IMG/VR virus record: IMGVR_UViG_2695420698_000007
Strand: one strand, 5' to 3'
DNA from: a virus
Lineage: Duplodnaviria; Heunggongvirae; Uroviricota; Caudoviricetes
DNA length: 4,507 bases
Shown: piece after piece, positions 4,478-4,507 of the stretch
Position numbering within the stretch: position 1 is the first letter of the stretch
How the letters are laid out: each line of letters starts with the position of its first letter
Notes under the pieces: generated by a model
Seen by the model: the letters and a program-made list of their open reading frames with translations, nothing else
The model's database searches: none
Told to the model about the DNA's origin: nothing
Position numbers and translations under genes: made by a program

Positions 4478-4507
4478 GGTGATGCTGCCAACTTACTGAT
4501 TTAGTGT
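4478..4507 (+). mobile_element. Left terminal inverted repeat of an IS1-family insertion sequence, running off the window edge
   Basis: GGTGATGCTGCCAACTTACTGATTTAGTGT matches the canonical IS1 terminus as I recall it. Only the first 30 nt are inside the window, so the element body and target-site duplication cannot be seen. Confidence 0.75.

Follow-up and report, generated by a model that had tools for sequence, protein, structure and literature searches.

An IS1 end within gene P, beside a two-gene cassette, in a DLP12-like defective lambdoid prophage

The prophage segment and its cassette

The window (the whole 4,507-nt stretch of DNA analysed here, IMG/VR record IMGVR_UViG_2695420698_000007) carries a porin gene, nin-region genes and a pair of small genes from a lambda-like prophage, and it begins and ends in insertion sequence DNA. 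The features on which the argument turns are listed below, numbered from the first letter of the window.

1–33, plus strand: last 33 nt of IS2 (nt 1299–1331 of K-12 IS2A, 32/33 identical).
2849–3304, minus strand: ybcN, NinB-like, the nearest conserved nin-region gene on the left side of the cassette ('YbcN family protein' in the IS-free locus L001).
3569–3946, plus strand: cassette gene 1, 125 aa, intact (from the list of open reading frames; the CDS annotated WP_000182282.1 in relatives).
3943–4370, plus strand: cassette gene 2, by alignment with L001 a pseudogene here; a 142-aa predicted membrane protein (WP_000608370.1) in relatives.
4371–4448, no strand: spacer of 78 nt between the cassette and P, identical in L001, holding a terminator-like hairpin at 4442–4424 (minus strand).
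4449–4477, minus strand: 3'-terminal remnant of the lambdoid replication gene P, with the stop codon at 4449–4451 and the last nine codons (RSGKEDNKE, then stop).
4478–4507, plus strand: left terminal inverted repeat of IS1 (IS1 nt 1–30), an exact match, with insA reading away from the window.

The locus as it stood before insertion can be read in IS-free relatives, among them L001 (strain A7), L009 and L025 (strain BH100N), and the alignment to such relatives that the initial annotation had proposed runs from the cassette through 78 nt to the stop codon of P. In these loci an ompC/nmpC-like porin gene on the plus strand is followed by quuD, ylcG, rusA, ybcO, ninE and ybcN, all on the minus strand, then by the 125-aa and 142-aa genes on the plus strand, and beyond the spacer by P (on the minus strand), O, ydaT, ydaS and the repressor region. 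Across 33–4478 the window aligns collinearly with L001, with only three differences over 3400–4478, and collinearity with the IS-free relatives as a group reaches 4477/4478. Positions 4449–4478 are collinear and identical with L001 7151–7180, the last 30 nt of a gene labelled 'replication protein P'; in L009 the protein encoded by the P homologue has the domain PF06992 (Phage_lambda_P), and the ybcN product scores 24.1 bits for Pfam NinB (E=3.5e-5; cut-off 23.8). Directly downstream of the P stop codon the hairpin at 4424–4442 (minus strand) is followed by a T-rich tail and faces the nin genes, at what we take to be the position of the terminator that separates P from the nin region in lambdoid phages.

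Gene order and gene names in the annotation of the relatives are those of DLP12 of E. coli K-12 (nmpC porin, quuD, ylcG, rusA, ybcO, ninE, ybcN, P), likewise a decayed prophage carrying insertion sequences. The nmpC gene of DLP12 is interrupted by IS5, whereas the porin gene of the window is intact. A further difference from DLP12-type loci lies in the slot between ybcN and P, which here holds the 125-aa and 142-aa genes and in the DLP12-type loci L004 and L007 holds other cargo: an AraC-type regulator, a PBP-family gene, a recombinase, an EamA/Multi_Drug_Res-family transporter and a small gene. The presence of unrelated cargo at the same place in other prophages marks the ybcN–P slot as a hotspot of exchange.

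Cassette gene 1 differs from its L001 counterpart at two nucleotides only, both in third codon positions. Gene 2 has suffered a 1-bp deletion (GG to G) at 3966/3967 relative to L001, L009 and L002, leaving open reading frames at 3943–3990 and 4029–4370; the 'membrane protein' of the initial annotation is therefore a real open reading frame but only the downstream piece of a frameshifted 142-aa pseudogene. Every IS1-bearing relative has this frameshift and no IS-free relative does; it lies ∼510 nt away from IS1 and is independent of it. The 125-aa protein matches PHROG 18061 and the intact 142-aa protein PHROG 16940 (both of function unknown), and the cassette proteins gave no Pfam match above cut-off and no match to PADLOC defence models at E<=0.1.

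Both limits of the cassette can be placed by comparison. On the left, lambdoid phages without the cassette (HK639, HK225, phi80) and DLP12-type prophages are homologous to the window only as far as ∼3483, where cassette-specific DNA begins; none of the 50,697 deposited phage records contains the two-gene cassette, and only the leader next to ybcN (3300–3483) is matched in them. It is present in ∼46 of 5,426 complete E. coli genomes (46 cover at least 80 per cent of window 3300–4507 by megablast), always between ybcN and P among the matches listed. None of the best 30 of these 46 matches passes query position 1179, which is window position 4478 and the start of IS1, and 29 of the 30 have an unbroken cassette adjoining 'replication protein P'.

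It had been proposed that IS1 truncated or rearranged the cassette, so that what is visible would be part of a larger system from which further genes were lost. The sole point in favour of such a loss is that the window ends in an IS, and we regard it as very improbable: in L001, L009 and L025 these two genes alone occupy the interval from ybcN to P, and they, the 78 nt and the P stop codon are all present and collinear in the window, with cassette-specific DNA starting near 3483, where homology to cassette-free phages and prophages stops. Because the IS-free relatives are collinear to 29 nt inside P, the cassette is, on this comparative evidence, complete in extent, comprising exactly two genes from ybcN to the P stop codon, with the junction to the replication module preserved. 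The related suggestion that this junction had been removed is thus half right, in that the cassette/P junction is kept (the 78-nt spacer, the P stop codon and the last nine codons) but P and O themselves are gone from the locus in the closest relatives. IS1 has visited the cassette elsewhere, since E. coli CV839-06 (L002 6415–7182) has a separate copy inside the 125-aa gene with a clean 9-bp duplication, TGAATAGAA, and the A+T-rich cassette has therefore been struck by IS1 more than once.

Insertion sequences at the two window edges

The last 30 nt of the window (GGTGATGCTGCCAACTTACTGATTTAGTGT, 4478–4507) occur once in it, without mismatch, and are identical at 30/30 positions to nt 1–30 of a 768-bp IS1, the reference being the copy from E. 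coli CV839-06 annotated 'IS1-like element IS1A family transposase' with a programmed frameshift. An IS1-family terminal inverted repeat (GGTGATGCTGCCAACTTACTGAT...) is present, then, at the 3' edge of the window, and the initial annotation had its coordinates and its distance of 107 bp from the membrane-protein stop correct, the stop codon of the last cassette open reading frame occupying 4368–4370. IS1 begins 29 nt into P, counted from the 3' end of the gene, and base 4478 (G) is common to the P sequence and the IS1 end; at this point the IS-free junction reads ...CTTCTTTACCACTTCG followed by CACCATCCCGTTCGACTTG... in 4/4 IS-free loci, and the window and its IS-bearing relatives read ...CTTCTTTACCACTTC followed by GGTGATGCTGCC....

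That a 30-nt match arose by chance and that DNA other than IS1 lies downstream, which the initial annotation had named as the finding that would overturn it, is so improbable as to be negligible. None of 200 dinucleotide-preserving shuffles gave a match to the IS1 end, even with up to three mismatches, and every relative that shares the junction and extends further (L003, L005 and L014–L018) runs on as IS1. The match is limited to 30 nt by the end of the window: of the IS1 body, ∼768 bp with InsA/InsAB', only 30 nt fall inside the window, and the rest was read from relatives identical over 147–4507. The draft contig L019 likewise stops after exactly 30 nt of IS1, and the 30-nt stub would be that of a short-read contig ending in a repeat. 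Both window edges are IS repeat boundaries, as in a repeat-bounded short-read contig, rather than biological truncations.

IS1 is able to form fusion promoters (Prentki et al. 1986, cited in PMC9330008), and outward promoter activity had been raised as a possible consequence of the insertion. The IS1 end here does have an outward-facing −35-like hexamer, TTGGCA (window 4491–4486, minus strand), but a manual scan found no usable −10 hexamer 15–19 nt from it (the best candidate has 3/6 matches), and a consensus promoter scan at the junction returned no promoter-like site. An outward transcript would in any event be a minus-strand one, sense for the nin genes and antisense to the cassette, and would meet the terminator-like hairpin at 4442–4424 just past the P stop codon. 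The proposal does not find support here, and no regulatory effect of IS1 on the cassette is predicted.

At the opposite edge the body of IS2 extends leftwards beyond the window, oriented like the porin gene, and the element ends 126 nt upstream of the porin ATG (160); the same 33 nt adjoin IS3-family transposase genes in L002 and L010. Fusion promoters are known to arise at IS2 right ends (Jaurin and Normark 1983, as cited in PMC9330008), and porin expression could therefore be affected. The IS2/porin junction was found in no complete E. coli genome and nowhere in metagenomes, and the only match to it was a 507-nt piece of another locus, L024 (IMGVR_UViG_2681813273_000005), whose positions 295–494 are 100 per cent identical to window 1–200 and whose porin gene breaks off after ∼41 nt, joined to a different Q allele. 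Window positions 33–146 show 12 substitutions and one indel against every relative, including the otherwise identical L005. These differences, together with the identity to L024, mark the window as a hybrid of two prophage loci, either by real recombination or through a chimeric assembly joined in the 54 nt common to both, 147–200.

Beyond the junction in relatives

An exact search for the P/IS1 junction found one contig among viral contigs, L003 in IMG/VR, and no match in the genome contig collection. A look-up with the porin of the window led to L005, a complete chromosome of 4.88 Mb (GCA_013147205.1, CP049179.1), and one with the frameshifted open reading frame product to the draft contigs L014–L021. 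Both L003 and L005 are 100 per cent identical to window 147–4507, frameshift and junction included, and relatives identical over this interval carry all 768 nt of IS1 at 99.1–99.5 per cent identity.

The initial annotation had suggested that the other end of IS1, and a target duplication of 8–9 bp, be sought beyond the window. The element is found in full in L005, where its 768 bp are split at nt 231 and its right end abuts cscK/cscB. IS1 nt 1–231 (14319–14549) stand directly after the junction and are followed by a ∼2.13-kb IS21-family element (14550–16680) with TGTCAG...CTGACA-type ends and an IstA-like gene (rve, Mu-transpos_C_2), after which IS1 resumes with nt 228–768 at 16681–17221, the nested insertion being flanked by a 4-nt duplication (IS1 nt 228–231). 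Several draft contigs (L016–L018) break inside this nested element, and it is therefore widespread in the lineage. In L014 and L015 the gene products past the junction carry Zn_ribbon_InsA (PF03811) and DDE_Tnp_IS1 (PF03400).

The far flank of IS1 in L005 consists of the 3' end of cscK, then cscB and torI, and beyond the junction the 21-kb locus shows neither P nor O sequence. A target duplication is likewise lacking, the left flank reading TACCACTTC and the right CGCTTGCAG, and the 8–9 bp duplication is also absent in L014 and L015, where the same left flank, TACCACTTC, is paired with GTGCGATGG and TGATGAGAT, respectively. As controls, the IS1 of L005 situated 264 nt to the left of window position 33 is flanked by an 8-bp duplication, CCAATTTT, and the copy in CV839-06 by the 9-bp duplication given above. 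The missing duplication at the junction indicates rearrangement rather than an element other than IS1.

The far flanks in the two draft scaffolds are mutS (L014) and solA/bssS (L015), neither of them P, and are given little weight here, as the IS1 regions look gap-filled and may be scaffolding artefacts: the IS1 of L014 is only 95 per cent identical with 11 gaps, and L015 has a partial IS1 and then a full one. L005 holds five IS copies within 21 kb, a density that would be typical of Shigella or of an IS-rich E. coli, and the late genes still lie to the left of the segment. In its terminal 30 nt, its A+T-rich target and the 8–9 bp duplications of its sister copies, the element conforms to IS1 of the 768-bp IS1A type known from E. 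coli and Shigella, and it departs from a typical IS1 in that the copy at this site in the relatives has no target duplication and is split at nt 231 by the IS21-family element.

Origin of the junction and its meaning

There is reason, with a probability of about 85 per cent, to think that a genuine IS1 end lies inside P, that the cassette beside it is complete, that an IS1-mediated rearrangement cut off the replication and immunity half of the prophage, and that no effect on the cassette is to be predicted. The DNA beyond IS1 is not the original neighbour, no duplication is present and P and O are absent, and IS1 is therefore linked to a rearrangement by which this site lost the replication region. 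IS1 lies in P, 29 nt from its 3' end, in a DLP12-like defective lambdoid prophage, and an IS1-mediated rearrangement would have split the late, lysis and nin half from the replication and immunity half, either by recombination between two IS1 copies or by intramolecular transposition. Both routes have precedent in adjacent deletions caused by IS1 and in recombination between IS1 copies (Turlan and Chandler 1995; Sommer et al. 1981; as cited in PMC9330008), which yield one original and one new flank without direct repeats, as in L005. More generally, an IS left with one old and one new flank and without direct repeats is the documented mark of these two routes, and IS1/Tn9 is a listed example (PMC9330008, section 5.2.1). 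The same IS1 rearrangement is probably present in the genome from which the window derives.

The far flank is documented in one complete chromosome only, L005, and the genome of the window differs from that chromosome by the IS2 end at 1–33 and by 13 differences in 33–146, so its state past IS1 could differ as well. It might instead carry a simple insertion, a 768-bp element with a 9-bp duplication and directly after it the rest of P and the replication module, which would read IS1, then the duplicated TACCACTTC, then GCACCATCCCGTTCGACTTG (the rest of P, then O). Other nearby IS1 copies are of this kind, with duplications of 8–9 bp; the left end makes the window an independent sample of the lineage; and the ancestral event must once have been a simple insertion, whether here or at the cscK site. 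We consider it unlikely nonetheless, given the complete identity of window 147–4507 with L003 and L005 down to frameshift and junction, and given that all visible far flanks (L005, L014, L015) are non-P and without duplication. The reciprocal junction (the IS1 right end, 0–12 nt, then CACCATCCCGTTCGACTTG, a pattern made valid by the fact that this sequence is common to all four IS-free relatives) was absent from viral, genome and metagenome collections, a weak negative as few isolates of the lineage are in them.

Another reading concerns the segment as a whole. In a transposon with the geometry of Tn9, the cargo is bracketed by directly oriented IS1 copies. In L005 a stretch of ∼4.7 kb containing the porin, the nin genes and the cassette lies between two IS1 copies of like orientation, and the segment could thus be a composite transposon of the Tn9 type (IS1/Tn9 is mentioned in PMC9330008). 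This is scarcely credible for the segment as it stands: its outer flanks share no duplication (ACCAATTTT vs CGCTTGCAG), the left IS1 has an 8-bp duplication of its own and so was inserted by itself, the left side of the segment is collinear with IS-free prophage, with the lysis genes lying beyond the left IS1, the right IS1 is broken by the IS21-family element, and the left neighbour in the window is IS2, not IS1. That an IS1-bounded remnant of 4.7 kb (porin, Q, nin genes and cassette) has been kept and occasionally moved in Tn9-like fashion within an IS-rich E. coli/Shigella lineage is at best a long shot; if true, the role of IS1 would have gone beyond destroying a prophage to the preservation and mobilisation of a phage-encoded porin together with an uncharacterised two-gene cassette.

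The rearrangement reading, to which we return, has practical bearing on work with the cassette, in which the two-gene unit can be treated as complete from ybcN on the left to the P stop codon on the right, and in which IS-free alleles such as WP_000182282.1 and WP_000608370.1 are to be preferred because gene 2 of the window is frameshifted. The IS1 element, its target and its consequences all fall within established IS1 biology. The locus exemplifies the ordinary insertion-sequence decay of a defective lambda-like prophage, and this prophage copy is, on that reading, a dead remnant, severed from its replication and immunity genes.
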